From Candidatus Nomurabacteria bacterium RIFCSPLOWO2_01_FULL_42_20 (GTDB lineage Bacteria; Patescibacteriota; Minisyncoccia; Phycocordibacterales; CAZVEC01), in the NCBI GenBank assembly GCA_001785965.1, contig MFVF01000030.1, forward strand, positions 1 through 51,148: a stretch of 51,148 nt of DNA. Direction: 5' to 3'. Below are positions 21,638-47,821 of this stretch, piece by piece. A program made the translations under genes and the position numbers. Each line of letters starts with the position of its first letter. Position 1 is the stretch's first letter. The notes below the pieces were generated by a model. That model did no database searches. It had not been told where the DNA came from and was given only the letters and a program-made list of their open reading frames with translations.

Positions 21638-21675
21638 ATTGCTGAGTGCGGGATTTCGCTTTCAAAGATAAACAT

Positions 21676-23355: not shown

Positions 23356-23415
23356 GAAATGTTATCAGTCGGAAGTGGTGTAAGCGCTTCTCTAATTCGC
23401 ACGAATAGGAGAATA

Positions 23416-25494: not shown

Positions 25495-26007
25495 ATGAAA
25501 AATAAAAACACAATCATTACAGTTATCGCACTGATAATAATTTTCGGCGGGCTTGTTTATTTCGCCAAGCCGAGCCAGAAACCAAGCGAAAAAGCAAACG
25601 CCGTTTCAGATGAACCTTCTTCTGCGGCGGCTCTTACTGCCGCTGAAACATTCTATAATTTCGGAGAAGTTTCCATGGCGAACGGCAATGTGAATCATGA
25701 ATTCAAGGTTAAAAATAATGCGGCCGGCCCGATTAACGTTGCTAAAATTTACACGTCCTGCATGTGCACAACCGCTTCAATTACAGTAGGAGAGAAAACG
25801 AAAGGACCTTTTGGCATGCCCGGGCACGGCTTGGTGCCAAAAGCCAATATGGAAATTCCGGCTGGAGCGGAAGCTGTAATCACAGCTATATTTGACCCGA
25901 ACGCCCACGGTCCGGCAGGCGTAGGCCGGATTGAAAGGGAAATATATCTTGAAGACGACGCTGGCGCTCAAACAATACTCAAGTTTGAGGCGACGGTCAC
26001 CCCGTAG
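25495..26007 (+). CDS. DUF1573-like membrane-anchored protein
   Basis: N-terminal TM segment; YNFGEVSMANGNVNHEFKVKNNAAGPINVAKIYTSCMCTT matches the DUF1573 pattern. Confidence 0.6.
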   Translation: MKNKNTIITVIALIIIFGGLVYFAKPSQKPSEKANAVSDEPSSAAALTAAETFYNFGEVSMANGNVNHEFKVKNNAAGPINVAKIYTSCMCTTASITVGEKTKGPFGMPGHGLVPKANMEIPAGAEAVITAIFDPNAHGPAGVGRIEREIYLEDDAGAQTILKFEATVTP

Positions 26008-26011
26008 TAAG

Positions 26012-26046
26012 ACGCGGACTTTCGCTGACTAAACGCGGACTTTCGC
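26012..26046 (+). promoter_or_regulatory. Direct repeat ACGCGGACTTTCGC x2, 21 nt apart, upstream of the ccdA-like gene
   Basis: Copies at 26012-26025 and 26033-26046 are identical, between the stop at 26007 and the start at 26057. Confidence 0.4.
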
Positions 26047-26056
26047 AGAAAAAAAT

Positions 26057-26911
26057 ATGGAAAATATGGAAAATGAAAATAAAAATAATTGTTGCCAAAA
26101 CGGAGAACAAAAAGAAAATAATGTGAAAAAATCAAATAAAATATGGTGGCTTATTATTGCCGGCTTGATTGTCGTCGGACTCGCGATTCTTCTTAAATAT
26201 TCCACGGGTTCGTCGCAGGTGATCTGGGATATAAGCGATGGGGGAAAGTGGCTTCTGCCGCTTGTCGGAATTACGGCTTTAGTTGACAGCATCAATCCCT
26301 GCGCCTTCTCAATTTTGCTTTTAACCATCGCCTTTCTCCTGTCGATAGGACGAATGAGATCAAGTATTCTGAAAATCGGAGGAATATATATCTTCGGAGT
26401 TTTCACCGCCTATATTCTGATCGGCCTCGGCATTCTGGGAGCGCTTCACATATTCAACACTCCGCATTTCATGGGCAAATTGGGCGCCGGACTTTTAATT
26501 GCTCTCGGCATTATAAGCTTGATCCAAGAAATATTTCCCAATTCTCCGATCAAGCTTAAAATTCCAAAATGGAGCCACGGCTTGCTCGCGCGCGTAATGG
26601 AAAAAGCTTCTATTCCAGCCGCTTTTGTTCTCGGCATTTTAGTCGGCCTCTGCGAATTTCCTTGCACTGGCGGACCGTACTTGATGATTCTCGGACTTCT
26701 TCACGACAATGTCACCTATATTAAAGGCGTCGGCTATTTGTTCATCTACAATCTTATCTTCATCTTGCCGCTCGTCATCATTCTGGCGATTGCCAGCCGA
26801 AAGTACTTGCTTGATAAAGTTGAAGCGTGGCAGAATAAAGAAAAAAGATTGATGCGTCTTGGCGGCGGAATCGCCATGATTATTCTTGGCATAATTATCT
26901 TCTTGTTATAA
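26057..26911 (+). CDS. ccdA: CcdA/DsbD-type thiol:disulfide electron-transfer membrane protein
   Basis: Polytopic protein; SINPCAFSILL and LCEFPCTGGPYL are cysteine-bearing TM motifs. Confidence 0.65.
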   Translation: MENMENENKNNCCQNGEQKENNVKKSNKIWWLIIAGLIVVGLAILLKYSTGSSQVIWDISDGGKWLLPLVGITALVDSINPCAFSILLLTIAFLLSIGRMRSSILKIGGIYIFGVFTAYILIGLGILGALHIFNTPHFMGKLGAGLLIALGIISLIQEIFPNSPIKLKIPKWSHGLLARVMEKASIPAAFVLGILVGLCEFPCTGGPYLMILGLLHDNVTYIKGVGYLFIYNLIFILPLVIILAIASRKYLLDKVEAWQNKEKRLMRLGGGIAMIILGIIIFLL

Positions 26912-26948
26912 AATAATATTACTATCAGTAGTTAAAATATATAATTAC

Positions 26949-27449
26949 ATGAAAAAAATAATTATCTGGATCTTGGTTGCTATTATCATTGTGGGAGGAT
27001 TTTATTGGCTTTCAAAGATTTCAAAGAAAGAGGAAGGCGTTCGGCCGGGGGAAGCTATTTCAGTTCAGGGCGCTAAACACATTTCCGTTGGAGACTCTCA
27101 TCCGGAATATAATTCCAATCCGCCGACGTCCGGCTGGCATTATGCAGGTCCGGCTGATTGGGGTTTTTATGACGAGGAACTTCCGGACGAACAACTCGTG
27201 CATAGTTTAGAGCACGGCGGTATTTGGATCTCTTATAAAGATATTGATGAAGAAACAAAAGGAAAATTGAAAGAATTGGGCGGTCGTTACCCAAAAAGCG
27301 TTATCACAACGCCGCGGGCGAAAAACGACGCCAAAATTGTCCTGGCGTCATGGGGCCGTTTGCAGAAATTTGATCAATATGACGAGGAAGCCATAAAGAG
27401 CTATATCAAAGCCAATCTAAACAAATCTCCGGAACCGTTGGCCATGTAA
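26949..27449 (+). CDS. DUF3105 domain protein, membrane anchored
   Basis: YNSNPPTSGWHY...LVHSLEHGGIWISY. Confidence 0.65.
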   Translation: MKKIIIWILVAIIIVGGFYWLSKISKKEEGVRPGEAISVQGAKHISVGDSHPEYNSNPPTSGWHYAGPADWGFYDEELPDEQLVHSLEHGGIWISYKDIDEETKGKLKELGGRYPKSVITTPRAKNDAKIVLASWGRLQKFDQYDEEAIKSYIKANLNKSPEPLAM

Positions 27450-28509: not shown

Positions 28510-29496
28510 ATGGAAACAAAAAATAAAAATTTAATACCGCAAATTCTTATCATCGCCGTTTTTGTGGTTGGTTTAGTTTTAATTTACCGAGTTGCTCCCC
28601 CGCTTCGCCAAGGCTTCGCAGGGCAAGCGCCGCTTAGCCCTATTACGACAGAGGCCGTGGAGAATTCAAGTCTTGATGGCTCGACTATACTCACCATCAA
28701 TCCTGAGCAAGGTCGAAGGATTGAAGAAAAAGTATTTCCGGAAGAAATTGTTTTGCCTGTTCGCTGGGGCGACTTGGGTTATCAGATGGCTCAAGCGGGA
28801 GTAATCGATAAACAGAAATTTGAAGAACTTTATGAGAGTCGGGGCGGACTTTCAGTGGAAGAGAAGAAATTGCTCGAAGGCCTGTCTAACGGCAACTTGG
28901 TCATAACTCAAGAAAACTCCGGATATGTCTTGAATCTGCTCTGGGCCTTCGGCTTGGGCAATAAAAATCCCGTTTTAGAAGAAGGGCCAATGGTGACATA
29001 CGATGGAGGGGAAGCGGGCTTGTCCGCCGAAGCCTTGGCGAAGGCGGGGCGCTTTGCTTCTACAGGCGGATGGACCCTAGCGAAGGGCGGCGCCATGGAC
29101 CACTATTCAAAACATTCATTCGTTGTCCTGACGACGCAGCAGCAGGCCAAAGTGGAGCACATGGCCAAAAATATTTACCGCCCCTGCTGCGGCAACTCGA
29201 CATATTTCCCGGACTGCAATCATGGCATGGCCATGCTCGGCCTTCTGGAACTTTTGGCCGCAAACGGCGTCTCGGAAGGGGAGATGTATAAAATCGCCCT
29301 TCAGGTCAATTCTTACTGGTTCCCACAAACTTATCTGACGCTCGCTAAATATTTTGAAATGAAAGGCGTCTCTTGGGACAAAGTTGATGCCAAAGAAGTC
29401 TTGGGTTTTGATTTTTCCAGCGCCTCCGGCTATCAGAAAATATTGACAGAAATAACTCCGGCCAATGTCTCCGGAGGCGGCAGCTGCGGCGCTTAA
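28510..29496 (+). CDS. Membrane-anchored extracytoplasmic protein with a Cys cluster, hypothetical
   Basis: N-terminal TM segment, RPCCGNSTYFPDCNHGMAMLG, and a C-terminal GGGSCGA. Confidence 0.6.
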   Translation: METKNKNLIPQILIIAVFVVGLVLIYRVAPPLRQGFAGQAPLSPITTEAVENSSLDGSTILTINPEQGRRIEEKVFPEEIVLPVRWGDLGYQMAQAGVIDKQKFEELYESRGGLSVEEKKLLEGLSNGNLVITQENSGYVLNLLWAFGLGNKNPVLEEGPMVTYDGGEAGLSAEALAKAGRFASTGGWTLAKGGAMDHYSKHSFVVLTTQQQAKVEHMAKNIYRPCCGNSTYFPDCNHGMAMLGLLELLAANGVSEGEMYKIALQVNSYWFPQTYLTLAKYFEMKGVSWDKVDAKEVLGFDFSSASGYQKILTEITPANVSGGGSCGA

Positions 29497-29561: not shown

Positions 29562-30137
29562 ATGAGACAAGTATTTGCTCTGCGAACGCATGAAGAAATC
29601 AAAGAAGTCCTTCTTGACGAGACTGCCGGCGGCCCGGACATTCATTATTATATGATCCGCGGCGGCAGGGAAAAAGGTAATGTCACAGTCTTGGAAAGCG
29701 GTTTGGCTGGCGGGGAATATATAAAAACATACGGGCATTATCATGTCGGTAAAATAGATGAAACATATAAAATCCTTTCCGGCGAAGGGATAATCATCAT
29801 GCAGACAAGGCATCTTGGTAAGAACGGGAAACCCATCGACGATGAAATAGAAACATTCAAAGCCGTAAATGTTAAAACCGGCGACTCGGTCGCCATACCG
29901 GCCGAGGCGGGACATTTGCTTATCAATACGGGGAAAAAGTGGCTGATTACCTTAGACGATAGTCCGGTTAATTTTGATGAGAAAAAGGCCGCCAGCTTTC
30001 CGGGCCACGCCGACTATGAGCCGTTTAAAAAGCTCCGCGGAGCCGCCTATTACATTGTCGAAAAAAACGGCAAGCCCTATTTTATAAAAAATCCGCGGTA
30101 TAAGAGCGCGCCGCCGGCAGAAGAACTTTATGCCTAA
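29562..30137 (+). CDS. Cupin-type glucose-6-phosphate isomerase family protein
   Basis: KTYGHYHVGKIDETYKIL and IPAEAGHLLINTG fit the cupin PGI metal-site pattern (T-x-G-H-x-H ... E-x-Y ... H). Confidence 0.6.
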   Translation: MRQVFALRTHEEIKEVLLDETAGGPDIHYYMIRGGREKGNVTVLESGLAGGEYIKTYGHYHVGKIDETYKILSGEGIIIMQTRHLGKNGKPIDDEIETFKAVNVKTGDSVAIPAEAGHLLINTGKKWLITLDDSPVNFDEKKAASFPGHADYEPFKKLRGAAYYIVEKNGKPYFIKNPRYKSAPPAEELYA

Positions 30138-30197: not shown

Positions 30198-33100
30198 ATG
30201 AGTATTTCTAAAACATCTTCAATTGCCGATATTTTAAAGAAAAAAACATCTCTTTCTTCTAATCCCGATATTGCCCTTAAATATTTAAAGAAATTTAAAT
30301 TAAAAGCCCGCAATGTCAGAGCGCTCTATGGCGAGCTGATGGCGCTTTGTTCGGGCCTTCGGCATATCACTCATGAGATTGAATCAATTATTGACAACTT
30401 TTTCGCGGTAGAAGCCGCTATTTTTGAAATAGAAAATCATATTAAAAAAAGCGATTTCAAAAATCTTCCGCTTATTGCCGCCGAAAAAAATAAATATGCC
30501 CCTCGCTTGCACTTCATCCTTTCCGGGCTTCTTAAAGAAAATAGTCAGATTATTGATAGAGAAATATTAGAATCTTTTCTTGTCTCGTACCAAAAGCATA
30601 GCCCGCTTTCAATTAGAGAATTATATGCCATTCCTCTTTTACTCCAAGTCGTTCTTGTTGAACATTTTGGAAAACTTATAGAGCAATCCATAAAATTCCT
30701 TAGAGAATACCGCGAGGCTGATATTACATATCAAAACATAAAAGATCAGGTCAATAAAGCATCATTCAGCGAATTTTCAAAAATTACTTCCGATCTTGGA
30801 TCAAAATACCCGCTTATTCCGCTTTCTTTCGGACTTCATCTCTACCAGAAACTTTCCCAAGAAGGCTCTGTCATGAGGCCGGTTATCAAATGGATAAAGC
30901 TTAATTTAGACAAACAGGGGATTAATCTAAAAAATCTTGGAGAAATAGAAAGCAGATTAAAAAGCGAAGATTTCAATACAATATCGCATATTATCGAATC
31001 GCTTCATTGGATAGCTCAAACTCGCTGGGATGATATTGTGCAGGAAATAAATGTTGTTGATACCATACTTTCAAGAGATCCGGCTGGAATATATTCAAAA
31101 ATGGATATTGAAAGCGCCATGGAGTACCGAAAAGCGATTGTGCGCATTGCTGAAAGAGCGGCTATTCATGAAGCGGAAGTTGCAAAAATTGCCGTAAGAT
31201 TGGCCTCCTCTAATGATGCATCTTTAAGCATGGCTAAAAAGCATGTGGGGTATTATCTTGTGGATAAAGGGATAATTGAACTTGAAAAGAAGATCGGGTA
31301 CCGGCTTTCTTGGAAAGACGTCTTGTATCGCTTTATTGTAAAAAACAATCAGGAATTTTATTTTTCTTCAGCTTTTGGTATTAATATTGTTCTAACTCTC
31401 GGCTTGGGCTTTATTTTTTGGAATTACAATGCTTCACTTTTATCCGCTTCTCTGTTTATGGTTGTTGTTTTTTTATTGAACACTGAAATTACGCTTAATA
31501 TTTTGAATGTTATTATTACTCGTTTCTTGCCGGTAAGAAAGCTTCCGAAGCTTGATCTTTTAAGTGTCGTAAGCGAAAAGCAAAGAACTTTTGTCGTTGT
31601 TCCTTCAATGTTCCACGGTGTTGAAACCGTGCATAATCTTATAAGAAAGCTTGAGGTTTGTTATCTAGGCAATCCTCAGGAAAATATTTTATACGCGCTT
31701 CTGCTTGACTTTAAAGATGCGTCAAGCGAGACGATGCCTGAAGATGACGCCCTTATAAAAGCAACTCAGGAAGGAGTAGATAATCTAAACGCCCGCTATT
31801 CCCAAAATGGCCAAAAATTTTTTATCTTGTACCGAAAACGCATCTGGAATGAAAAAGAGGGCGCTTATATGGGCTGGGAGAGAAAAAGAGGAAAGCTTCG
31901 CGAATTTAATATGCTTCTTAGGGGAGCGCGGGAGACATCATACATGAATGGTGATGTTCTTAGAAATATTGGCCATATTTCTTATGTAATTACTCTAGAT
32001 GAAGACACAGAATTGCCAAAAGACGCCGCCTCTGGGCTTATCGGAACCATTGACCACCCTCTTAATAGGCCCGTGCTTTCTTTATCCGGAGACAGAGTTG
32101 AAAGAGGTTATGGAATTATACAGCCGAGGATAGGCATACGGTTGGCGCTAGCTTCAAAATCAATTTTTTCAAGGCTTTTTTCATCTGTTTCCGGTATTGA
32201 TTCATATTCCAGCGCCGTATCGGATGTCTATTATGATCTTTTTGATAACAGTCTTTTTTTTGGAAAAGGAATATATGATATTGATGCCGTAGAAAAAGTG
32301 ATGGATGGAAAAATTCCAGATAATCTTATTTTATCGCATGATTTGCTCGAGGGACTCTACACTAGAGTAGGTTTTGCCAGCACTATTGTTTTATTTGACG
32401 GTTTTCCAAATTTTTACCACGAATTTATGATTCGCCTGGATCGATGGATCAGGGGCGATTGGCAGATTATTGGCTGGATAAAAAGAAAATATCATCCGAA
32501 GGGAGCCAGAGAGCCAACTCTTCATTTTTCTTTCATTGACAGATGGAAAATTATTGACAACCTGCGCAGAAGCCTCATACCGGTATTTTCAATAATGATC
32601 ATAGCTTATGGAATATTTTCCGCTATGCCGCTAGGGCAGATAAGCATATACGCGGTTTTTGTTTTCGGCGCTCCTTTTTTAGCCGCTCTAGCCAGCGATC
32701 TTTTCTCACTTAAAAAGGTGCCTTTTTCTGTAAGATTTTATGATACATTAAGGCAAATAAAATTGACATTTCTGCATATAATTTTGCGCGCCGCCATCAT
32801 TCTGCACCAGGCAATTGTTTCAATCACGGCGATTTTCAGGGCTATCATTAATTTGATAATAAAGAAAAATCTTCTTAGATGGCATAGTTTCTCCGATGTT
32901 AGCAAAAAATTGAGCGGAAAATTGCTTGGGTATTATCAAACAATGTGGACAACGCAATTTGTATCAATTTTTTTAGCCATCTTAGCCTATTTTTTCGCTC
33001 CGATCAATAATTTTTTGTATTTTTGGCTGATTTTTTGGTTATTGTCTCCCTTAGTCGGGTATTTTATCAGCTTGCCTCGGAATAAAAAGAAAATTCTTAA

Positions 33101-36100
33101 TCCTAAGGATACAAGAATGCTGCGATCCATTGCTTATAGGACATCACATTTTTTTACTGATTTTTCACATAAAGAAAACAATTGGCTGGCCCAAGATAAT
33201 TATCAGGAATATCCTAAAATTATAGGGATTTCACATCCTGCAACTTCTCCAACAAATATAGGAATGCTTTTTACCTCGCTTTTTTCTTCGTATGAATTCG
33301 GATTTATACCTCTTGATCATTATATAGATAAAACCCGCAGGGCTTTCGCGAGCGTTTCAAAACTTGATCGTTTTAAGGGCCATCTTTATAATTGGTATGA
33401 TATTACAAAATTGCAGTCCCTTCACCCGAAATACGTATCAAGCATAGATAGCGCAAATTTTGTCGTGGCTCTCATTACTGTGCGCCAAGGACTCAAATCC
33501 ATTGCCCAAAAACCTCTTGTGAGTAGCAGTGTGATTCGGGGGGTAGAAGATGCGCTTTATGTCTTAGATGAAGAGGTTGAACGCGTGATGAATAGAAATT
33601 CGTTTTCCAAAATTTCCCGAAAAATATTGCGGGCAATACGCCTCAAAGTCAAAGTGGTTTATAAAATGGTCAATACTTTCAATGAGCCTGAAACAATTTC
33701 TGAAGCGTATTTGTTTCTTTCCAAGGTTTACGAACATATAGGCCGCATAGAAAAGTCTATTACCAGCCTTAAAGCGCATACCCATTCAAGCGAACTTAGC
33801 TTTCTGTTTGCATATGGCGAAAGATTGATGAATCTTGTTGAAACTCATCTTAGGTTTATAAGATATATTTTCCCTCACTCCACGCCACTGGATACGGCAA
33901 TACGCTCATATGTTTTCAGGGATATTTATTTGTTTGCGGTGTACAAAGATTTTATAAAGTGTATTCAAAAAATCCCAACTTTTTATGAACTTGCTACTTC
34001 ATATTTAGATCAGGCAGAATCTTTGAATTTCAGAAAAGCAATTATATCTTCACATCTGGCCCCCGATACAAAAAAATATATTTTGTCGTGGTATGACATT
34101 ACAGTAGCTGATATACGTCGCGCCCAATCACGGGCTAGAGAATTTCTTTCTGATATTGAATATTGTGAAAATGAATGCGCTAGATTTATTGATGAGCCGG
34201 ATTTTACGTTCTTTTACAATAAAGAGCGGGGACTTTTTCATATAGGATACAATGCGGCTTTTGGGAAAATTGACAGTGCTACGTATAATTTCTTAGCTTC
34301 AGAATCAAATTCTATTTCATTTGTTTCAATACTCAAAAATCAAATTTCTTCAAAAAACTGGTTTTATTTGGGACGCAAGTTTATACGATCAGGCCAAGGA
34401 ATTGCCCTGGTATCATGGGGCGGTTCGCTTTTTGAATATTTGACTCCTCTTCTTTTCTTCAAAACCCACCCGGAAAGTCTGCTGGGAAAAACAGCTTTGA
34501 CGGCTATCCGCACTCACCAAAGCGATGCTCGAAGAGAGGGCACGCCCTGGGGCATGGGCGAATCCGCCTATTATGCTTTTGACTCCGTGAAGCATTATCA
34601 GTATCAAGTTTTTGGAAGCGCCAAACTTGGTCTGAAGCGCGGCCTTTCTGATCATCATGTAATTGCTCCTTACACCAGTATTTTGGCGCTTTCTGTTGCC
34701 CTGCGCAAAGCAGTCGACAATATTAAAAATTTAATTTCTTTGGGCGCGAAAGGGAATTATGGCTTGTATGATGCCATTGATTATATGGATGAAAGGCGAG
34801 TAAGAATTTCCGAACCCCTGCCAATAAAGATATATTATGCCCACCATCAAGGTTTTGTTATGCTTGGCCTCCACAATATTCTCCTCAAAAATACGATTCA
34901 GGAATATTTTCACAATGATCCCCGAGTTGAAGCGCTCGAAATTCTTCTTGAAGAAAAAATGCCGACAAGCATAGACGCGCGGTTCTTGTCAAAGCCAGTA
35001 AGAATGTCTCTGGCGGTCGCTTCTACAAGCAGAGATACCGGCTTTGAAAGTAAAAGATATATTCCCGCCAAGATCCGCATTCCTCGATATGCTCTTATAT
35101 CAAATGGTTCTTATTCCATAGGAATCAGTAATTCCGGCGCCGGATGGTCTAATTATAAAGGTGTTTCCTTAACCCGGTCGAGACACGACGGTATCATAGA
35201 AGAATATGGCTCATATATTTTCGTTAAGGATGAAAAGACCGGCATGGTCTGGTCTCCAACAATTCATCCGCTCTCGCGAGAGGCCCAAAAGCAAAAAATT
35301 ATTTTTTTTGAGAATAAAGCCGAATTTTTTTCCTCCATGGGCAATATTGCTTCCCGGCTGGAAGTAACAGTCGATCCGCAAAATCCTGTCGAGGTGAGGC
35401 AGTTGACCATGACAAATAATGGAAGTGAAAGAGTTAAGCTCCAAGTAGCGAGTTACGGGGAAGTGTCGCTTGCTCTCAATCTGCAGGATGTCCAGCATCC
35501 AAAATATCATAAGCTTTTGGTGGCATCAGAATTTCTAGAGGAATACGATACTCTTATATATTCGCGCCCTCATCCGGAAGATAGATTGAAAAAAATTTAT
35601 TTTTCCCACACCCTTGTTCAGGGGGTGTTTGAAAAAGCGCCAATATTTCCCTGTGTGGAAAGAGAAAAGTTTATTGGCCAGTATGGGTCATTATCAGAGC
35701 CTATCATTTTTAACTCGAATATAACTGATTCAGGCGTGAAAGAATATTCCCTTGACCCCATATTTTCCTTGCGCCACACTATCGATCTTAAAGCCGGGGA
35801 ATCAGTTCATTTTTCTTTTGTAAATTGCGCGAGTGAGAGCAGGGAAGAACTCATAAGGCTGATTAAGCAATATAAAAAACCAAGGATGCTGGCGAATCTT
35901 TTTGCTCGCGCGGAAAAGGAAAGCGCTATGACGACTAAAAAATTAAACATCACTCAGGAAATGGCCGTCGTTTATCAGGAACTTGCGAGCGTGGTGCTGG
36001 GCGGAAAGATGCAAACTACAGTGTCTCATGCGCCTGAAACGCGCCTTCCTTACATTCATTTTTTATGGCACCATGGAATTTCCGGAAATAATCCTCTTGT

Positions 36101-38927
36101 AATGATAGCCATAAAAGACACTGAAGATCTTCAAATGATCCAATATGCCTTGTCATGCCATGCTTATTGGAAACACAAGGGCTTGAATATTGATATTGTT
36201 ATTTTTAATCAAGAACCCGCGAGTTATATAAAGTTTTTAGATGATGAAATAGACTTTCTTATCCGCCAAAAACGCATAGCGGAGGCCGATGGCAAGAAAA
36301 GTGCCGTATATCATGTTAAGTCCGATTTGATGACAAACGAAGAAAGAAAGGCGCTTCTCTTTGCCGCTAAAGTCATAATCGACAGTAAGACCGGCAGTTT
36401 TAAAAAGCAGGTTTCAAACTTCCTCTTTTCAAAAAATTTAAAATTTCCGGAAAAACTTTCAGCCCTTGCTCGTCATTCTAAAATTTCACCAAAAACAGCA
36501 TTAAGGGGGGCGCTGCCAAAAAATTTGCTTTTTACCAATAGTTTTGGCGGATTTGATGAGATAAATTCAGAATACGCAATGCATATTTCCAGCAATAATA
36601 TGCCGCCGGCTCCATGGACAAATATTATTTCAAATGAAAATTTTGGAACTATTATTACTGAGGCCGGTTCAGCGAATACATGGGCCGTCGATAGTTATGA
36701 TAATCGCATTACTTCATGGCAGAATGATTCTCTCGTATTCAAAAGTCCTGAAATTGTTTATATTCGCGATAAGGAAACGGGCGAAATATGGAATCCGACT
36801 CCGTTTCCGGTGCCTACGGACGAACCATTTATTGTCCGCCATGGAAAAGGCTACACCATATTTGAACATAATCATTCTGGCATTGAACACTCATTTGAGA
36901 TTTTTGTGCCCCGATCTGAAAAAATAAAGATATCTCGTCTTAAAATTAAAAATAAAACAAAGATAAAAAGAAATCTATCCGTCACTTCGTATTTGGAAAC
37001 GGTAATGGGTATTAGTATTGACCCTAGTAATAGTCGGGATTTTTTGCAGTTTTCAAAAAACCGTGCTACCGGCGCTCTCTTGATTAGAAACATGTTTAGA
37101 AATAATTTTCACAATAGCATTGCTTTTGCAGATATAAATGGCGGCTCATATAAGGTTTCCACCAATAGGGAGGAATTTTTGGGCCGTTATGGCTCTTATA
37201 GTTCCCCTGAAGCTCTTAGTCGAGTTTCTCTTTCAGATGAGATTACCCATGGCTCCGAAGGGTGCGCGGTATTAGAGAGTGTTATCAAACTCGATCCGGA
37301 TGAGGAAAAAGAAATCATTATCATTCTTGGCGAAACCGAAAGCGAATCAGAAGTTGAGCGAATGATTATCAAGTATCGTTCAATAAAGAATGTTAAAGCA
37401 GAGCGAGAAAAAATTCGTTCATTTTGGTCATCCGTTTCATCAAAAATTCAGATTGAATCTCCCGACAAAAAGCTTGATATTATGTTTAATCAAAATCTTT
37501 TATATCAAGTGCTGTCGTCTCGCTTGATGGCAAAAACCGGATTTGACCAGCCGGGCGGCGCCTATGGTTTCAGAGACCAGCTTCAAGATATTATTTCTTT
37601 GGTTTGGTCGAATCCAGGGCGTGTCCGATCATTTATTCTGAAAGCCGCGATGCATCAATTTAAAGAAGGAGACGCGATGAATTGGTGGCACGACCATAAT
37701 AATTTTGGAATTCGAAACGTGCTTTCCGACCATCAGTTATGGCTTGTATATGCGATTACTGAATATATTTCTATCACAGGAGACAAAGATATTCTTGATG
37801 AATTAATCCCATATCTTGAAGGACACGATGTTAATTTCACTTATCAAAGGGAATGGGCGGGCATCCCGGATCTTTCTAATGAAAAAGACACTCTGTATGA
37901 GCACTCTATCAGAGCGCTTGAAAAAAGCCTGGTTTTTGGAAAACACAATCTGCCTCTTATAGGAATGAGTGACTGGAATGACGGTCTTTCAAGAGTGGGG
38001 ATTTTGGGCAAAGGTGAAAGTGTTTGGTTAGGGTGGTTTCTTATTTATCTTCTGGAAAAAATTATTCCTTACGTGGAAGAAAGAAATGACACTCTGCGTC
38101 TTTCTCGCTACAAGCTCGCAATAGACAATCTTGTGAAAGCCCTTGATAAAAACGCCTGGGATGGGAGGTGGTATAAAAGAGCTTTCCTCGACAATGGTGT
38201 CGCTCTTGGCTCGCACAAACTGAAGGAATTTAAAATAGATTCTCTTTCGCAATCTTGGTCAGTCTTATCAAAAAAAGGCAATCCCGAAAAAGTTTCAAAA
38301 GCTATTCATTCAGGGCTCTCGTATCTGTATAATGGAAAAAGCATGAAGATTATCGCGCCGCCGCTCAAAATGTCTTTATTTGATCCGGGTTATATAAAAG
38401 ATTATCCGCCCGGTGTTCGCGAAAACGGCTCGCAGTATAATCACGCGGCGCTTTTTATGGCTCAAGCCCTTTTTATTCTGGGCGAATCAGATACCGCGAA
38501 AAAGATTATTGATTTAGTAAATCCGATTACCCACTCTGATTCCCATAAAAAAGCTTTAGTCTATCGTGCCCAACCAAATGTCGTCGCTTCAGATATTTAT
38601 ACCAATCCTTCATTTGAAGGCAGGGGCGGATGGACTTGGTATACGGGTTCCGCGGCTACAATGTATAAAACTATTATTCAGTTTATGTTTGGTTTTAATA
38701 AAAAAGGGGATTCTCTTTCTTTCAGCCCTTCTTTACCTTCAGACTGGACTTCGTGCGCCATCACATATCATTATGGAAATTCTTTGTATCATATAAATAT
38801 TGAAAAGCCGGCCGGCATCCACAATACTGTTATGGAAGTGTATGAAAATAACGTAAAAATAAAAGATAAAACAATCAAGCTCGTTGATGACAGTCAAGAA
38901 CATTTTATTAAAGTTGTTCTATCCTAG
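30198..38927 (+). CDS. cgs: Cyclic beta-1,2-glucan synthase-like giant protein (GT84 domain, TM segments, GH94 phosphorylase-like C-terminus)
   Basis: 2909-aa uninterrupted ORF. GT-region motifs ITLDEDTELPKDA, ILSHDLLEG and RWIRGDWQ, flanked by multiple TM helices. C-terminal GH94-like motifs FRDQLQD, GMSDWNDGL and ENGSQYNHAA. Confidence 0.8.
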   Translation: MSISKTSSIADILKKKTSLSSNPDIALKYLKKFKLKARNVRALYGELMALCSGLRHITHEIESIIDNFFAVEAAIFEIENHIKKSDFKNLPLIAAEKNKYAPRLHFILSGLLKENSQIIDREILESFLVSYQKHSPLSIRELYAIPLLLQVVLVEHFGKLIEQSIKFLREYREADITYQNIKDQVNKASFSEFSKITSDLGSKYPLIPLSFGLHLYQKLSQEGSVMRPVIKWIKLNLDKQGINLKNLGEIESRLKSEDFNTISHIIESLHWIAQTRWDDIVQEINVVDTILSRDPAGIYSKMDIESAMEYRKAIVRIAERAAIHEAEVAKIAVRLASSNDASLSMAKKHVGYYLVDKGIIELEKKIGYRLSWKDVLYRFIVKNNQEFYFSSAFGINIVLTLGLGFIFWNYNASLLSASLFMVVVFLLNTEITLNILNVIITRFLPVRKLPKLDLLSVVSEKQRTFVVVPSMFHGVETVHNLIRKLEVCYLGNPQENILYALLLDFKDASSETMPEDDALIKATQEGVDNLNARYSQNGQKFFILYRKRIWNEKEGAYMGWERKRGKLREFNMLLRGARETSYMNGDVLRNIGHISYVITLDEDTELPKDAASGLIGTIDHPLNRPVLSLSGDRVERGYGIIQPRIGIRLALASKSIFSRLFSSVSGIDSYSSAVSDVYYDLFDNSLFFGKGIYDIDAVEKVMDGKIPDNLILSHDLLEGLYTRVGFASTIVLFDGFPNFYHEFMIRLDRWIRGDWQIIGWIKRKYHPKGAREPTLHFSFIDRWKIIDNLRRSLIPVFSIMIIAYGIFSAMPLGQISIYAVFVFGAPFLAALASDLFSLKKVPFSVRFYDTLRQIKLTFLHIILRAAIILHQAIVSITAIFRAIINLIIKKNLLRWHSFSDVSKKLSGKLLGYYQTMWTTQFVSIFLAILAYFFAPINNFLYFWLIFWLLSPLVGYFISLPRNKKKILNPKDTRMLRSIAYRTSHFFTDFSHKENNWLAQDNYQEYPKIIGISHPATSPTNIGMLFTSLFSSYEFGFIPLDHYIDKTRRAFASVSKLDRFKGHLYNWYDITKLQSLHPKYVSSIDSANFVVALITVRQGLKSIAQKPLVSSSVIRGVEDALYVLDEEVERVMNRNSFSKISRKILRAIRLKVKVVYKMVNTFNEPETISEAYLFLSKVYEHIGRIEKSITSLKAHTHSSELSFLFAYGERLMNLVETHLRFIRYIFPHSTPLDTAIRSYVFRDIYLFAVYKDFIKCIQKIPTFYELATSYLDQAESLNFRKAIISSHLAPDTKKYILSWYDITVADIRRAQSRAREFLSDIEYCENECARFIDEPDFTFFYNKERGLFHIGYNAAFGKIDSATYNFLASESNSISFVSILKNQISSKNWFYLGRKFIRSGQGIALVSWGGSLFEYLTPLLFFKTHPESLLGKTALTAIRTHQSDARREGTPWGMGESAYYAFDSVKHYQYQVFGSAKLGLKRGLSDHHVIAPYTSILALSVALRKAVDNIKNLISLGAKGNYGLYDAIDYMDERRVRISEPLPIKIYYAHHQGFVMLGLHNILLKNTIQEYFHNDPRVEALEILLEEKMPTSIDARFLSKPVRMSLAVASTSRDTGFESKRYIPAKIRIPRYALISNGSYSIGISNSGAGWSNYKGVSLTRSRHDGIIEEYGSYIFVKDEKTGMVWSPTIHPLSREAQKQKIIFFENKAEFFSSMGNIASRLEVTVDPQNPVEVRQLTMTNNGSERVKLQVASYGEVSLALNLQDVQHPKYHKLLVASEFLEEYDTLIYSRPHPEDRLKKIYFSHTLVQGVFEKAPIFPCVEREKFIGQYGSLSEPIIFNSNITDSGVKEYSLDPIFSLRHTIDLKAGESVHFSFVNCASESREELIRLIKQYKKPRMLANLFARAEKESAMTTKKLNITQEMAVVYQELASVVLGGKMQTTVSHAPETRLPYIHFLWHHGISGNNPLVMIAIKDTEDLQMIQYALSCHAYWKHKGLNIDIVIFNQEPASYIKFLDDEIDFLIRQKRIAEADGKKSAVYHVKSDLMTNEERKALLFAAKVIIDSKTGSFKKQVSNFLFSKNLKFPEKLSALARHSKISPKTALRGALPKNLLFTNSFGGFDEINSEYAMHISSNNMPPAPWTNIISNENFGTIITEAGSANTWAVDSYDNRITSWQNDSLVFKSPEIVYIRDKETGEIWNPTPFPVPTDEPFIVRHGKGYTIFEHNHSGIEHSFEIFVPRSEKIKISRLKIKNKTKIKRNLSVTSYLETVMGISIDPSNSRDFLQFSKNRATGALLIRNMFRNNFHNSIAFADINGGSYKVSTNREEFLGRYGSYSSPEALSRVSLSDEITHGSEGCAVLESVIKLDPDEEKEIIIILGETESESEVERMIIKYRSIKNVKAEREKIRSFWSSVSSKIQIESPDKKLDIMFNQNLLYQVLSSRLMAKTGFDQPGGAYGFRDQLQDIISLVWSNPGRVRSFILKAAMHQFKEGDAMNWWHDHNNFGIRNVLSDHQLWLVYAITEYISITGDKDILDELIPYLEGHDVNFTYQREWAGIPDLSNEKDTLYEHSIRALEKSLVFGKHNLPLIGMSDWNDGLSRVGILGKGESVWLGWFLIYLLEKIIPYVEERNDTLRLSRYKLAIDNLVKALDKNAWDGRWYKRAFLDNGVALGSHKLKEFKIDSLSQSWSVLSKKGNPEKVSKAIHSGLSYLYNGKSMKIIAPPLKMSLFDPGYIKDYPPGVRENGSQYNHAALFMAQALFILGESDTAKKIIDLVNPITHSDSHKKALVYRAQPNVVASDIYTNPSFEGRGGWTWYTGSAATMYKTIIQFMFGFNKKGDSLSFSPSLPSDWTSCAITYHYGNSLYHINIEKPAGIHNTVMEVYENNVKIKDKTIKLVDDSQEHFIKVVLS

Positions 38928-39009: not shown

Positions 39010-39822
39010 ATGAAAAACAAACCATTAAAAGATTTAAAACAGGAGTTTATTCGCCAAAATATTAAGGCCGTTACTTTTGATATTGACGGCGTGATTATCC
39101 CGGTTGGAACTTTCTTGCGCGAAAATATTGATGGAACGGAACTGACTATCAAAACGCATAAATTAAGCGCGAAAATGCTTGAAATGATTCTTGAGCTTAA
39201 AAAACATTTCTGGGTTAATTTTTCAAGCGGGCGATCGCTCTTGTATTTGCAAAGCATGCTTAATGACATTTTGTGGGACAGGGTATCATTAACCGCCGAG
39301 AATGGTAATTTTATTTTAATGAACGGCGAAGTCAGGCAATTGGCTAAATACGACCAAAATTATTTTCAAAAATTAACTAATATCAGGAATGATTTAAAAA
39401 AGCTAAAAGCAAAGAAGCCGGAGATGGTTTACGGCTTTGAGCCGAAGCATGTCATTCTCACCGTTCATACGGCAAGCCAAATGCCTGAAGTGAAAGAAAT
39501 TGTAAAAAAGCATGACAAGGAAAAAGAACTTTATTGCCTCTGGACGAGCGAAGGATATGACATTGGACACAAGAAAACAAACAAAAATACCGCTCTCCAA
39601 TATCTGGTTAAAAAATTAAAAATCAAACCAAAGCAGATGATTACAACCGGCAATAATCAAAACGACAAGGAAATGCTTGACTTTGGAATTGGCGTCAGTG
39701 TTGATCCGGCACAAGTAAGCGCGCCGTATGCCATCCAAAAGAAAGAAGGCGAGCTCGGCGGAGAAATCCTCGCTGAATATCTTCTCTCTGCAAAGAAGAA
39801 ATATAGAAAACATATGTACTAG
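39010..39822 (+). CDS. HAD-IIB (Cof-type) phosphatase
   Basis: FDIDGVI (motif I), FSSGRS (motif II), GNNQNDKEM (motif IV). Confidence 0.75.
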   Translation: MKNKPLKDLKQEFIRQNIKAVTFDIDGVIIPVGTFLRENIDGTELTIKTHKLSAKMLEMILELKKHFWVNFSSGRSLLYLQSMLNDILWDRVSLTAENGNFILMNGEVRQLAKYDQNYFQKLTNIRNDLKKLKAKKPEMVYGFEPKHVILTVHTASQMPEVKEIVKKHDKEKELYCLWTSEGYDIGHKKTNKNTALQYLVKKLKIKPKQMITTGNNQNDKEMLDFGIGVSVDPAQVSAPYAIQKKEGELGGEILAEYLLSAKKKYRKHMY

Positions 39823-39930: not shown

Positions 39931-40989
39931 ATGAAAAACATAATATTGATCTTTGTATTCTTTACTTTGGGGTTTAATGCCAATGCACAAGAAGGTGATA
40001 CCTCGTGTGCTCCTGAAGTGCCGAGGTACAATTACTTCGGCAAGGGCAACACCAAAACTGACGGAAAACCCGGCAGGCTCGGCGGCTTTTATGAAGGAGC
40101 GGAAACAAGAATAAGCGACTATGAAAAGGGAAGATTGTCCGGGTATAAACAGGGCAATCTGACGCTTAAATTGGATTCGATTCTCTCGGTTGTCTTGGGG
40201 TATTACGGAATATCCTATAACGACGGCGCTAAAGAGCGCTTATCGGACAAGCTAAAATCTTTCAACCTCTCGGAAGATCAGCAAGAAGGCCTAACGCTTT
40301 TCATGGATTCTATCATTACGACACTCCTCGAATATCACGGGGTGCCGTATGAAAACGCCTCTTCGCTTGAAGATCGCTTAGCAGGTAAGCTAAAAGCTTA
40401 CCAGATCTACAAGTTCAATAAGGGAGTAGCTCTGACCAATAGGGGCCAGGGGTACGACCTTATTGTAGGACCTAAAACGAGAGAGGAACTGCTGAAGGAC
40501 AAAGACATTGTCTGCCGTGAAGAGATTGGAGAAAATGTTGCAAAAAGTAGCAGCGGTGACAATCTTGCCGAAGGTTGGGTTAAGATAACTCCCGAAAAGA
40601 AAGATAGCTTAATCAGAATCAGAAAAGACATCCGCTTCTTTTTTGTTCAATTTCTCTACGGATTCGGAGAGGTGCTGGATTCCCGCCGACTCGAATACAC
40701 CGAGGGCGCTATTGGATTTCGAATAGCGCATAATCTGTATCTTGGAGGAAGCGTGATGTACGAAAACGTACACTCGCGCGGAAAAGAAATAAGGTACGGA
40801 GCGATGCTGGTCTATGATTTTAGAGGTCGCAACACTCTTCCGATCACCTTCGGATACCAAATTAGCTTCGGGGAAATTGTTTACCACTCTGTTGTTGCCT
40901 CGGCTGAAATAGTGAGGCACATCGGCATAGTGGGTAAATACAACTTTAACAATCCCTCCATGGGCATCGGAGTCAGGATAACCCTATAG
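39931..40989 (+). CDS. Secreted protein, hypothetical
   Basis: Signal-peptide-like N-terminus MKNIILIFVFFTLGFNANAQ. The C-terminal 110 aa or so alternate hydrophobic and polar residues. Confidence 0.6.
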   Translation: MKNIILIFVFFTLGFNANAQEGDTSCAPEVPRYNYFGKGNTKTDGKPGRLGGFYEGAETRISDYEKGRLSGYKQGNLTLKLDSILSVVLGYYGISYNDGAKERLSDKLKSFNLSEDQQEGLTLFMDSIITTLLEYHGVPYENASSLEDRLAGKLKAYQIYKFNKGVALTNRGQGYDLIVGPKTREELLKDKDIVCREEIGENVAKSSSGDNLAEGWVKITPEKKDSLIRIRKDIRFFFVQFLYGFGEVLDSRRLEYTEGAIGFRIAHNLYLGGSVMYENVHSRGKEIRYGAMLVYDFRGRNTLPITFGYQISFGEIVYHSVVASAEIVRHIGIVGKYNFNNPSMGIGVRITL

Positions 40990-42810: not shown

Positions 42811-43158
42811 TTAATTCAAGCCTTTTTTAATTCTCAAAAGAATTTCTTTTAACTCTGGTAAGTCCTTTTTTATAGTATCCCAAACAACCTTTTCATCAAT
42901 GCCCCAATACTCATGCACTAACATATTCCGCATGTCCATAATTTCTTTCCATTCGACTTTAGGATATTTCTCACGAACTTGTTCATAAATATTCTTGATT
43001 GCTTCCCCGATAATAATAAAATTCATCATCACTGCCTCATAAGTTTTTTTATCGTTTTTTAATTCGCCACCATCTTTATGAACTAAAACATAGCTATTAA
43101 TTTTATCTATAGCGTCAAAAATGTCTTCAATGTATAAATTTACATCTCTTTCGATCAT
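42811..43158 (-). CDS. hepT: HepT (DUF86) toxin of a type VII TA pair
   Basis: RNMLVHEYWGID contains the R-x4-H-x-Y motif. 115 aa. The antitoxin gene's 3' end overlaps this gene's start by 4 nt. Confidence 0.85.
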   Translation of the reverse strand: MIERDVNLYIEDIFDAIDKINSYVLVHKDGGELKNDKKTYEAVMMNFIIIGEAIKNIYEQVREKYPKVEWKEIMDMRNMLVHEYWGIDEKVVWDTIKKDLPELKEILLRIKKGLN

Positions 43159-43451
43159 ACAATCTCTAGCTGACTTAAAATTTTATCGCGAATAAGTGGC
43201 TTAATTCCACTTTTAGTAACAAGATCAACTTCTCGTCCTAATAAATCTTTTAAATAAAATTTAAGACGGGCAAACTCAAAAAGACCTACTGGAACTTTGT
43301 GACTTAATTCAACAGCAATATCAATGTCGCTATCCGCGCCATGTTCGTCTCGGACAACTGAACCGAAAACGCCTATCTCTTCCACGCCGTAAGTTTCCTT
43401 AAGATAATCTTTCTTTTGAGCGATTTTTTCTTTGATTTCATTTAGATTCAT
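43155..43451 (-). CDS. mntA: MntA nucleotidyltransferase antitoxin
   Basis: GVFGSVVRDEHGADSDIDIAV (G-S-x10-D-x-D), 98 aa. Confidence 0.85.
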   Translation of the reverse strand: MNLNEIKEKIAQKKDYLKETYGVEEIGVFGSVVRDEHGADSDIDIAVELSHKVPVGLFEFARLKFYLKDLLGREVDLVTKSGIKPLIRDKILSQLEIV

Positions 43452-43703: not shown

Positions 43704-43985
43704 ATGCATGCGCATCGCGATTCTAAGTATAAAAAACAACTCATCAGGCGGCTTTCCATCGCTTCCGGGCAGATTAAGGGGCTTATGAAGATGATTGAGG
43801 AAGACAAATACTGCATTGATATCTTGCATCAGTCGCTTGCCGTCAAGCAGGCTCTTTCGGGTTGTGAAGATTTGATTTTGGAAAATCATCTCTCCACTCA
43901 CGTCATTGAGCAGATAAAATCAGGAAAGGAATCAAAATCAACCAAAGAAATTTTGGATATTTATAAGTTGTCAAAAAGAAAATAA
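43704..43985 (+). CDS. csoR: CsoR/RcnR family metal-sensing repressor
   Basis: IRRLSIASGQIKGLMKMIEEDKYCIDILHQSLAVKQAL..C.. is the DUF156 pattern with Cys/His/Cys ligand positions. Confidence 0.85.
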   Translation: MHAHRDSKYKKQLIRRLSIASGQIKGLMKMIEEDKYCIDILHQSLAVKQALSGCEDLILENHLSTHVIEQIKSGKESKSTKEILDIYKLSKRK

Positions 43986-43987
43986 TA

Positions 43988-44872
43988 ATGGAACTTCTTT
44001 TAAGCGCATCAATAATAGCCGCATTTATCGCTGGAGTAGCCGCTCTTTTTGCGCCATGCTGCATTACCGTGCTTTTGCCGTCGTATTTTGCTTCTATTTT
44101 CCGCGAAAAGCGCAAAGTTTTTTTAATGACTTTTATTTTCTTTCTGGGAATTCTGGCGGTTTTCCTGCCGATTGGATTGGGGGCGGCGACGCTCGGAAAG
44201 TTCTTCAGCCAATATCACAATATTATTTTCGGCATCGGCGGCACATTTCTCGCTATTCTCGGAATCATTCTTCTCACTGGCATTCATTTTTCTTTGCCAA
44301 TGAGAGCAAGCCCCGCTCTCAAAAATCATAATGCGGTTTCCGTGTTTGTATTGGGCGTATTTTCAGCGATTGCCACGACCTGTTGCGCGCCGGTGCTGGC
44401 CGGAGTGCTCGCCCTCTCCGCGCTTCCCGGGTCAATATTCTGGGGCGGTATCTATACTCTGGCTTATGTCTTCGGGATGGTCGCGCCATTGTTCTTGATC
44501 TCGCTTTTCCTTGATAAGGTCAACTTCGAACAAAAATTCCAAAAGACTTTTAGCAGACCGATCCGATACCGATTGCTTGGCAAGGAAGTCAGCATTGCTG
44601 TTTCTGAAGCGGTTTCAGGCGTTACTTTTCTGGCTATGGGCGTTTTGATTCTTTATTTCGCCCTTACTAATAAGCTCTTTATGCAAGCCGGAGGTTATCA
44701 GACAGACATCAATATTTTTCTTACTAAAATTCTGCAATCCATAAACGGCTTTATAAAAATTGTTCCCGAATATGTCTGGGCGATTATCCTTATTGTATTA
44801 GTAGTATTAATAGTTAAGTGGTCGATTAAACAATTTATTAGAGAAAATAAGAATAATAAAAATTATGAATAA
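43988..44872 (+). CDS. DsbD_2/CcdA-like membrane protein with CC motifs
   Basis: FAPCCITVLLPSYF and TTCCAPVLAG lie in TM helices; about 7 TM segments. Confidence 0.6.
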   Translation: MELLLSASIIAAFIAGVAALFAPCCITVLLPSYFASIFREKRKVFLMTFIFFLGILAVFLPIGLGAATLGKFFSQYHNIIFGIGGTFLAILGIILLTGIHFSLPMRASPALKNHNAVSVFVLGVFSAIATTCCAPVLAGVLALSALPGSIFWGGIYTLAYVFGMVAPLFLISLFLDKVNFEQKFQKTFSRPIRYRLLGKEVSIAVSEAVSGVTFLAMGVLILYFALTNKLFMQAGGYQTDINIFLTKILQSINGFIKIVPEYVWAIILIVLVVLIVKWSIKQFIRENKNNKNYE

Positions 44873-45497
44873 AAATAATATTTTAACCGTTGCAATAATA
44901 GTTATATTTATAGTTGGCGTTGGCGCATTGATATACAGCGGAAAAAATAATGGTAATAATAAAACTGAAACAGTCGCAGTCGATGAACACGGGCATTCCT
45001 TGCCTGCTAACGCCGCAGTTTCATCCATTGCAGACATGGTTGACAAGCCGGCGCCAGATTTTTCACTCTCTGACCGAGACGGGAAAGTGTATTCATTGAG
45101 CGAATTGCGGGGTAAAAACATCATTCTCTTTTTTAACGAAGGATTGATGTGCTATCCAGCCTGTTGGAGCCAAATAGCTTCTTTCCCCAAAGATGAACGA
45201 TTTAGTAATACTGGCACAGTGGTACTCTCGATTGTAGTTGATTCCGCGGATGATTGGCAAAGCGCGATTGAAAAAATGCCGGAGCTTGCTACGGCCACCG
45301 TTGTTTTTGACAAAGGCGCCACAGTATCAAAACAGTTTGACATGCTTAAATCCGCATCCTCAATGCATTACGGGTCCCTGCCAGGGCACACTTATGTGCT
45401 TATAGATAAAGAAGGAATTGTCCGCCATGTTTTTGACGATCCGAATATGGCTATCCACAACGATCAATTGATAGCGGAGCTTGATAAAGTAAGTTAA
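44865..45497 (+). CDS. Redoxin/AhpC-TSA-like thioredoxin-fold protein, membrane anchored
   Basis: PAPDFSLSDRDGKVYSLSELRGKNIILFFNEGLMCYPACW. Confidence 0.7.
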   Translation: MNKNNILTVAIIVIFIVGVGALIYSGKNNGNNKTETVAVDEHGHSLPANAAVSSIADMVDKPAPDFSLSDRDGKVYSLSELRGKNIILFFNEGLMCYPACWSQIASFPKDERFSNTGTVVLSIVVDSADDWQSAIEKMPELATATVVFDKGATVSKQFDMLKSASSMHYGSLPGHTYVLIDKEGIVRHVFDDPNMAIHNDQLIAELDKVS

Positions 45498-45504
45498 AAC
45501 TAAC

Positions 45505-46647: not shown

Positions 46648-46666
46648 ACCCTCCTTCGCTAAAGCT

Positions 46667-46888: not shown

Positions 46889-46929
46889 AAAAGTCGAAAA
46901 TTATTAGTTTAACTTTAATAAATAAATAT

Positions 46930-47211: not shown

Positions 47212-47215
47212 AATC

Positions 47216-47386: not shown

Positions 47387-47388
47387 TA

Positions 47389-47817: not shown

Positions 47818-47821
47818 TAAT

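Follow-up and report, generated by a model that had tools for sequence, protein, structure and literature searches.

We analysed a 51,148-nucleotide contig (MFVF01000030.1, GenBank assembly GCA_001785965.1; hereafter the window) of Candidatus Nomurabacteria bacterium RIFCSPLOWO2_01_FULL_42_20, a lineage that NCBI places in the Parcubacteria group of the Patescibacteria, or Candidate Phyla Radiation (CPR). The subject of this report is one very large gene on that contig, cgs, which lies between a cupin-type glucose-6-phosphate isomerase gene and a HAD-IIB phosphatase-type gene and whose product a preliminary description, made from the DNA letters, had likened to cyclic beta-1,2-glucan synthases (Cgs/ChvB/NdvB). 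The open reading frame runs unbroken on the plus strand from an ATG at 30198 to a stop codon at 38925-38927 and encodes 2909 amino acids. Upstream of the ATG the stop-to-stop frame extends just 10 codons, to 30168, so the start codon is well defined. An open frame of 2909 codons in DNA of 39 % G+C cannot be a product of chance, an inference that has independent support from Pfam matches with E-values of 7e-122 and 1e-93 and by a 1538-bit match to PDB entry 8RF0, the Cgs of Agrobacterium tumefaciens. The features of the locus are as follows (TM, transmembrane; NTD, N-terminal domain; CY, cyclase):

30198..38927, plus strand: cgs, encoding the Cgs-type protein (Pfam and PDB alignments; NCBI OGI91375.1)
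30198..31352, plus strand: NTD, putative cytoplasmic scaffold, residues 1-385, aligning to the A. tumefaciens NTD from residue 55
31353..31532, plus strand: TM helices 1-2, residues ~386-445 (hydropathy peaks at 389-407 and 414-440)
31533..32567, plus strand: GT84 domain, residues 446-790 (residue-by-residue alignment to 8RF0)
32568..33077, plus strand: TM helices 3-6 with the TM4-TM5 interface helix and loop, residues 791-960 (hydropathy)
33078..34997, plus strand: GH189 cyclase (CY), residues 961-1600 (match to PDB 8WY1, E-values 7e-100 and 1.8e-95)
33618..34202, plus strand: helical insertion in CY, residues 1141-1335, unaligned to 8RF0 and 8WY1
34998..38924, plus strand: GH94-type phosphorylase half, residues 1601-2909 (PF06165 in two stretches, PF17167 and the 8RF0 alignment)
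29562..30137, plus strand: cupin-type glucose-6-phosphate isomerase, 60 nucleotides upstream of cgs (PF06560, PDB 1J3P)
39010..39822, plus strand: HAD-IIB (Cof/YidA-like) phosphatase-type protein, 82 nucleotides downstream of cgs (TIGR01484, TIGR00099, PF08282, PF05116)

The protein is named "hypothetical protein A3A09_01910" at NCBI (OGI91375.1) and "Carbohydrate binding domain-containing protein" in UniProt. Pfam profiles matched PF06165 (GH94 supersandwich) twice at the first of the E-values given above, PF17167 at residues 2409-2832 at the second, and PF10091, a "glucoamylase" family, at residues 1400-1574; no NCBIfam model recognised the protein, which gave only two spurious weak matches. 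Among PDB entries the best match was A. tumefaciens Cgs (8RF0/8RF9), aligned in collinear blocks covering query residues 55-1143 and 1333-2874, followed by the cyclization domain of Thermoanaerobacter italicus (8WY1) and then by stand-alone GH94 phosphorylases. The domain order (NTD, TM1-2, GT84, TM3-6, GH189 cyclase, GH94 phosphorylase) is the same in 8RF0. All six motifs singled out in the preliminary description were found, at residues 598 (ITLDEDTELP), 713 (SHDLLEG), 749 (RWIRGDWQ), 2458 (FRDQLQD), 2589 (GMSDWNDGL) and 2742 (ENGSQYNHAA). That description had also named two outcomes that would speak against its proposal, a C-terminus belonging to another family and substituted catalytic residues: the C-terminus is GH94 by both Pfam families, and the D-x-D motif (D601/D603) and the DWND aspartate (D2595) are intact. 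We took reference residues, established by mutagenesis or structure, from the literature (PMC10901819, PMC10834661) and mapped them by residue-level alignment, with the numbering checked by script. Each of the 17 mapped catalytic, substrate-site or primer residues is present in the window protein (17/17), and 15 are invariant across 52 homologues, D504 and D603 being nearly so. Judged on its sequence, the protein passes as a Cgs by every mark of membership in that family.

In the N-terminal third, the GT domain had been described as embedded among transmembrane helices, and hydropathy agrees, with two hydrophobic segments before GT84 and four after it (Kyte-Doolittle peaks at residues 792-810, 815-838, 916-940 and 939-957, with an amphipathic segment at 856-884). 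This arrangement, assigned from hydropathy alone, fits the six-helix topology and the TM4-5 motif of the solved enzyme, where the TM4-5 stretch comprises 76 residues (PMC10901819); the scaffold role of the Cgs NTD is taken from the same study (PMC10901819). The GT84 part had no Pfam match and its assignment as a glycosyltransferase relies on the 8RF0 alignment, in which the UDP-coordinating aspartates D504 (A. tumefaciens D527) and D601/D603 (D624/D626), R562 (R586), the catalytic base D715 (D739) and R749/R752 (R773/R776, in RWxRGDWQ) are all kept. The primer tyrosine Y670 (A. tumefaciens Y694, in the IF1-homology loop; GIDSY versus GIDPY) is invariant both in the 52 sequences and in a set of 30.

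The cyclase carries S1081/D1084 (A. tumefaciens S1101/D1104), the acid/base E1369 (A. tumefaciens E1300, T. italicus E1356), E1413 (T. italicus E1400), the nucleophile E1455 (T. italicus E1442) and H1549/H1550 (T. italicus H1536/H1537), and E1455, E1369, E1413, H1549/H1550 and D1084 are invariant in the 52 homologues. The suggestion that the middle region may differ from known enzymes stands for the insertion at residues 1141-1335 and fails for the core, which is a conserved GH189 domain with all catalytic residues. The insertion is 194-196 residues long in 27 of 27 CPR sequences and 89-198 residues in the others, and it is the least conserved region of the family: CPR and other sequences are 13 % identical there, compared with 39-44 % in the catalytic cores. 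Its counterpart in A. tumefaciens, ~100 residues between aligned blocks, is a protruding four-helix motif for dimer formation, given as ~120 residues (PMC10901819). The GH94 half is laid out as GP1, a Rossmann-like insert (~residues 1915-2080) and GP2-3; it keeps D2460 (A. tumefaciens D2393) and the catalytic acid D2595 (A. tumefaciens D2528), and R2459, D2460, D2592-W-N-D2595, R2741, E2742, N2743 and H2749 are invariant across the homologues.

The 27 best database matches share 34-60 % identity with the window protein, are all ~2,900 residues long and, where labelled, come from Paceibacterota or Patescibacteria; the next matches, at 31-34 %, come from Acidobacteria, Bacteroidota, Proteobacteria, Chlamydiales, Spirochaetia and Actinobacteria. 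The 27 CPR sequences group as a single clade, supported at 100 %, in a tree built by neighbour joining (2,716 columns, 100 bootstraps); within it the window sequence and six relatives make up a subclade that is likewise supported at 100 %. A search with residues 446-1600 against 1.84 billion representatives retrieved 3,445 proteins at an E-value threshold of 1e-30, 12 of which fall in the CPR clade in a second tree (bootstrap 100), the thirteenth-best match lying outside. We rejected a score gap (789 versus 742 bits) as the edge of the clade, as the tree puts P0191 outside it and leaves 12 members, not 13. Cgs is thus a very large and widespread family, of which the CPR sequences make up a small branch that is both deep and coherent. 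Two records, L001 and L002, the closest cgs relatives among species representatives, are labelled "uncultured Candidatus Saccharibacteria bacterium", and the other labelled clade members are Paceibacterota, Parcubacteria or Patescibacteria. Either these two titles are loose or the clade extends beyond Parcubacteria; the flanking genes of L001 (the same sequence as the ENA contig L004) and L002 were too divergent to resolve the class.

To describe the gene neighbourhood we compared the window with 11 further CPR loci (designated by L and P numbers). A cupin glucose-6-phosphate isomerase adjoins cgs at seven loci (the window, L001/L004, L002, L007, L008, L011 and the P0013 contig). The window copy matches PF06560 with an E-value of 6.5e-17 (61.8 bits, the cut-off being 20.7), and the metal site of 1J3P, GHYH...E...H, is retained in the motifs GHYH, E-x-Y and P-x4-H-x3-N. 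At the same position beside cgs, L005 carries instead (18778-20043) a classical, non-homologous phosphoglucose isomerase (PF00342; NCBIfam glucose-6-phosphate isomerase), which brings the loci with an isomerase of either type to 8/12, the window included. As the type of isomerase is swapped at one position, there is good evidence that the activity, and not a particular gene, is linked to cgs. Across the loci, isomerase identity broadly tracks Cgs identity. A second neighbour, a HAD-IIB protein of the phosphomannomutase (PMM) type, adjoins cgs at L004, L005, L007, L008, L011 and L012, that is at 6/11 loci whose upstream side is present, and the L007 copy aligns over its full length with the alpha-phosphoglucomutase of Lactococcus lactis, its closest relative of solved structure (PDB 4BND, E-value 4e-38).

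Some of these loci also carry a membrane GT2 polysaccharide synthase beside the alpha-phosphoglucomutase and cgs (L007, 7940-9187, minus strand; L008, 5898-7148, minus strand; L012, 4677-6221, plus strand), the L007 protein being PgaC/IcaA-like (E-value 3e-48), and the organisms that carry it may make a second glucose- or N-acetylglucosamine-based polymer from the same precursor pool. Just upstream of the window isomerase, a 328-residue protein (28510-29496, plus strand) with an N-terminal membrane anchor and a cysteine-rich motif (CCGNSTYFPDCNHG ... GGGSCGA) had no family match even at an E-value of 1, and is conserved beside the same genes in the sister metagenome-assembled genome (MAG) and in a JGI contig. 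A promoter and terminator scan around cgs gave counts at chance level (35 versus 32 and 19 versus 14 expected) and supports no statement about an operon.

Several observations weigh against reading the locus as a complete CPR Cgs with a linked sugar-phosphate module. The HAD-IIB protein next to cgs in the window has the DxD, K and GDxxND motifs, but belongs to a different, phosphatase-like subfamily, so that the module is incomplete there: we considered it as a PMM/alpha-phosphoglucomutase-type enzyme and rejected this, as it lacks a PF03332 match, its PDB matches are only YidA-type phosphatases (best match YidA, E-value 3.5e-5) and it shares 20-23 % identity with the alpha-phosphoglucomutase-type neighbours of other CPR cgs genes. 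A functional link between this protein and cgs is uncertain. A tblastn search found no alpha-phosphoglucomutase in the 51-kb window, and no UDP-glucose pyrophosphorylase (GalU) was seen there or in the 8-10 kb flanking cgs in the 11 relatives. The linkage itself gives no direction of flux, and a catabolic reading would fit it equally well. The trees are distance-based and in effect unrooted, and therefore silent on any donor. Lastly, the third-position G+C of cgs is 0.36 against ~0.50 in several neighbours, with similar values in the alanine racemase (Alr), zinc-finger and HAD genes.

This compositional difference, together with the wide occurrence of Cgs in other phyla (the 3,445 representatives), would be expected if cgs were a non-CPR gene, brought in by mis-binning of the contig or by very recent horizontal acquisition, or a decaying relic. 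Composition is not diagnostic as a test of horizontal origin, the value of 0.36 falling within the contig spread of 0.30-0.53. The genes of the contig form a class at ~0.30-0.43 (Alr, the zinc-finger pair, cgs and HAD) and another at ~0.50 (BipA, CtpA, DUF4015, Pif1, the cupin isomerase and a P-type ATPase), and adjacent genes differ, as do the isomerase (0.50) and cgs (0.36); overall G+C is 38.9 % for cgs and 41.1 % for the window. Against a foreign origin, the 51-kb contig, in the middle of which cgs lies, holds genes for BipA, ribosomal protein L9, Alr and a CtpA-like protease as well as two tRNAs, and cgs is therefore not on a stray fragment. Exact-sequence look-ups with eight other window proteins showed that the sister MAG RIFCSPHIGHO2_01_FULL_42_16 also carries window proteins, which bear the Nomurabacteria label in both MAGs. 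The two sister Nomurabacteria MAGs have the gene with the same neighbours, as do independent assemblies from JGI, ENA and Logan, and the three-gene stretch around it is present on an independent JGI metagenome contig. Its relatives lie on contigs of up to 549 kb, several of them beside ribosomal or translation genes. Every member of the CPR-only clade is full length with invariant catalytic residues, and this combination of deep divergence, intact length and invariant residues argues for long residence under selection and against contamination, recent transfer and decay. A comparison of synonymous and non-synonymous changes (dN/dS) with the near-identical JGI contig L003 was uninformative: the window differs from it at only 7 nucleotides, in 4 non-synonymous and 2 synonymous codons. 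An origin outside CPR or a relic state is thus largely refuted and in our estimate barely credible. The phylogeny that the preliminary description had proposed as a check on horizontal origin speaks against a recent transfer, within the limits of unrooted neighbour-joining trees. Its picture of a reduced, host-attached genome holds in kind, the contig being from CPR Nomurabacteria, with host attachment of this particular lineage a supposition. Taking these points together, the sequence comparisons make it very probable that the gene encodes a complete Cgs of a CPR clade with a linked sugar-phosphate module.

From the homologous enzymes of A. tumefaciens and T. italicus we infer the following mechanism. 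All catalytic domains would lie on the cytoplasmic side. The GT84 domain (D504, D601/D603, D715, R749) would glucosylate Tyr670 to give a short protein-bound primer and would lengthen it with beta-1,2-linked glucose from UDP-glucose, the GH94 half (D2595) would trim the non-reducing end by phosphorolysis and release alpha-glucose-1-phosphate, and the GH189 domain (nucleophile E1455, acid/base E1369) would then carry out an intramolecular transglycosylation that yields a ring of ~17-25 glucoses and regenerates the primer. The neighbouring enzymes could form a feed-and-recycle module in which the isomerase interconverts fructose-6-phosphate and glucose-6-phosphate, the mutase interconverts glucose-6-phosphate and alpha-glucose-1-phosphate, and the latter leads to UDP-glucose; glucose-1-phosphate from GH94 trimming would re-enter the hexose-phosphate pool.

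As to the fate of the glucan, in Rhizobiales synthesis takes place in the cytoplasm, the ABC transporter Cgt/ChvA exports the product, and the glucan collects in the periplasm. The same arrangement in CPR would give an osmoregulated periplasmic glucan that protects cells in dilute groundwater. The catalytic make-up of the window protein is indistinguishable from that of the proteobacterial enzymes, the phenotype assayed in A. tumefaciens is protection under hypo-osmotic conditions (PMC10901819), the source is groundwater or sediment, and a glacier-MAG survey states this role for a Patescibacteria MAG (PMC10876117). However, Patescibacteria are described as monoderm, unable to make lipids and without an identified lipid-uptake mechanism (PMC11665869), and such cells have no known outer membrane to hold a solute of ~3 kDa. 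A ChvA/NdvA/Cgt-type exporter was found neither in the 51-kb window nor in the flanks of the 11 relatives. Since the cells are presumably monoderm and no glucan exporter was found in these stretches, the "periplasm-like" destination proposed in the preliminary description is doubtful, and we consider a periplasmic role unlikely.

Three sets of candidate exporters were rejected. Two L006 ABC exporters 3 kb downstream of cgs, the sole ones close to cgs at the CPR loci compared, scored 243-246 bits against a cut-off of 733 for NF010178 and are generic, with a better match to MsbA. The adjacent genes at 21646-23355 and 23359-25095 had the size of a ChvA-type ABC pair, and Pfam gave only treble-clef zinc fingers. 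The ABC protein at 5514-7010 is of the ABC-F type: it possesses two nucleotide-binding domains but lacks a membrane domain. An open reading frame two genes downstream of cgs (39931-40989, plus strand, 352 residues) has a Sec signal peptide (MKNIILIFVFFTLGFNANA|Q) and a C-terminal ~110 residues with alternating hydrophobic residues, and is named [quoted passage not shown] in UniRef, which would be odd for a monoderm CPR cell. The barrel label is unsubstantiated and lends the periplasmic role no support: there was no Pfam match at an E-value of 1, a single-sequence AlphaFold model had a pLDDT of 30, and in a search of 5.8 billion proteins its only homologues belonged to its own 90 % cluster.

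The lack of an exporter in the window and in those flanks would also suit a glucan that stays in the cytoplasm, as a ring or as a protein-bound linear beta-1,2 chain, and serves as a compatible solute or small carbon reserve, with GH94, alpha-phosphoglucomutase and phosphoglucose isomerase returning glucose to glycolysis (glucose-1-phosphate to glucose-6-phosphate to fructose-6-phosphate). The homologous structure has all its catalytic domains in the cytoplasm (PMC10901819), the two enzymes joining glucose-1-phosphate to glycolysis are precisely the conserved neighbours, and loss of the phosphorylase (GP) activity has been reported to leave larger glucans in the cytoplasm. A cyclised glucan, however, has no non-reducing end for the phosphorylase and would make a poor reserve, and yet the cyclase residues are invariant; no beta-1,2-glucanase was seen adjoining cgs, and generic ABC exporters are common in these genomes. 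We regard retention in the cytoplasm as a real though minor possibility, the main alternative to release. Release of the glucan to the cell surface or to a partner organism is in our view the most likely fate, given a presumably monoderm cell for which no exporter came to light, and we give it about an even chance. A more specific form of release is highly unlikely in our estimate: a glucan set free at a contact site could act like a cyclodextrin, binding and shuttling hydrophobic molecules (lysolipids, fatty acids or hopanoid-like lipids) from the partner membrane, or could loosen that membrane. This reading would join the implication of cyclic beta-1,2-glucans in lipid-raft remodelling (PMC10901819) with the lack, in Patescibacteria, of lipid synthesis and of any identified route of lipid uptake (PMC11665869).

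Elsewhere on the contig, the two adjacent ~570-residue proteins already mentioned (21646-23355 and 23359-25095, plus strand) have treble-clef zinc-finger motifs near their ends as their sole recognisable features. Between the sister MAGs and related contigs they vary in length (569/588/598 and 578/559 residues), which suggests that they are fast-changing genes. A metal and thiol-redox run at 43704-51115 (plus strand) comprises a CsoR-type metal-sensing repressor, a DsbD-like membrane protein, an AhpC/TSA redoxin, YibE/F, DUF5676, a lycopene-cyclase-domain protein and a P-type ATPase with a heavy-metal-binding domain; another group, DsbD-like/DUF1573/DUF3105, occupies 25495-27449, and L004 too has a YibE/F gene near cgs. 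The overlapping frames at 42811-43451 (minus strand) encode a HepT-like RNase and an MNT-type nucleotidyltransferase, a typical toxin-antitoxin pair, and a 314-residue protein at 12781-13725 (minus strand) matches only the C-terminal DNA-binding helix-turn-helix of DnaA (E-value 1e-9), without the AAA+ part.

CPR bacteria make up a large share of bacterial diversity and their dealings with partners and environment are mostly obscure, while cyclic beta-1,2-glucan is well studied in host interaction and osmoadaptation and has been discussed almost only for the periplasm of Gram-negative bacteria. Some Parcubacteria have kept a complete 8.7-kb synthase gene through deep divergence, beside two enzymes of the hexose-phosphate pool, and this raises the question of what the glucan would do in a cell without a periplasm. 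Being clonable, the gene offers a concrete way to study a possible surface or secreted carbohydrate of bacteria that cannot be cultured, and the CPR clade, at about one-third identity and with invariant catalytic and primer residues, helps to tell which positions are essential and which lineage-specific. A further result is a correction of the names "hypothetical protein" and "carbohydrate binding domain-containing protein", as well as "cellobiose phosphorylase" and "glucoamylase family protein", which on CPR homologues describe part of the protein only.

In the literature searched, no paper ties GT84, GH94, ndvB, chvB or cyclic beta-1,2-glucan to CPR except the glacier-MAG survey, in which one sentence lists Cgs in a Patescibacteria MAG from automatic annotation (PMC10876117); another paper lists the CAZy combination GT84;GH94 in a table only, and the Cgs papers treat cyclic glucans as products of Gram-negative bacteria (PMC10901819). 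That literature thus holds a single passing mention of Cgs in Patescibacteria, and the CPR Cgs clade, its conserved residues and the isomerase/mutase linkage are new to it.

Finally, we compared the locus with known systems. The L. lactis alpha-phosphoglucomutase 4BND is matched by the HAD neighbour of cgs at L007, which has homologues beside cgs at the other five CPR loci with the PMM type, and not by the window HAD protein at 39010-39822. Among stand-alone GH94 enzymes (cellobiose and chitobiose phosphorylases and 1,2-beta-oligoglucan phosphorylase), cellobiose phosphorylases align over their full length with the C-terminal 800 residues of the window protein (E-value 4e-72) and have the catalytic aspartate in common with it; unlike the window protein, these phosphorylases are soluble, ~800-1,100 residues long, and without GT84, transmembrane or cyclase parts. 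Characterised members of the family had been described as proteobacterial, which is not solely so: the cyclization domain of T. italicus Cgs, the founding member of GH189 (PDB 8WY1), has been characterised as an isolated domain (PMC10834661). The window cyclase differs from it in the insertion between the conserved halves (~182 residues, against ~126 between aligned blocks in T. italicus), and shares the nucleophile, the acid/base and the equivalents of E1400 and H1536/H1537. The proteobacterial Cgs proteins are only 31-33 % identical to the window protein, and that of A. tumefaciens has a CY insertion of ~100 residues that cannot be aligned with the 195 residues found here. The A. tumefaciens system further differs in its setting, as the CPR bacterium is presumably monoderm and its cgs has sugar-phosphate enzymes as neighbours, with no chvA/cgt-type exporter found in the window or the flanks of the relatives. 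In common with A. tumefaciens Cgs, the window protein is one polypeptide of ~2,800-2,900 residues with the same domain order and six transmembrane helices, and it keeps the GT84 motifs, the primer tyrosine, the acidic residues of the cyclase and the catalytic aspartate of GH94.

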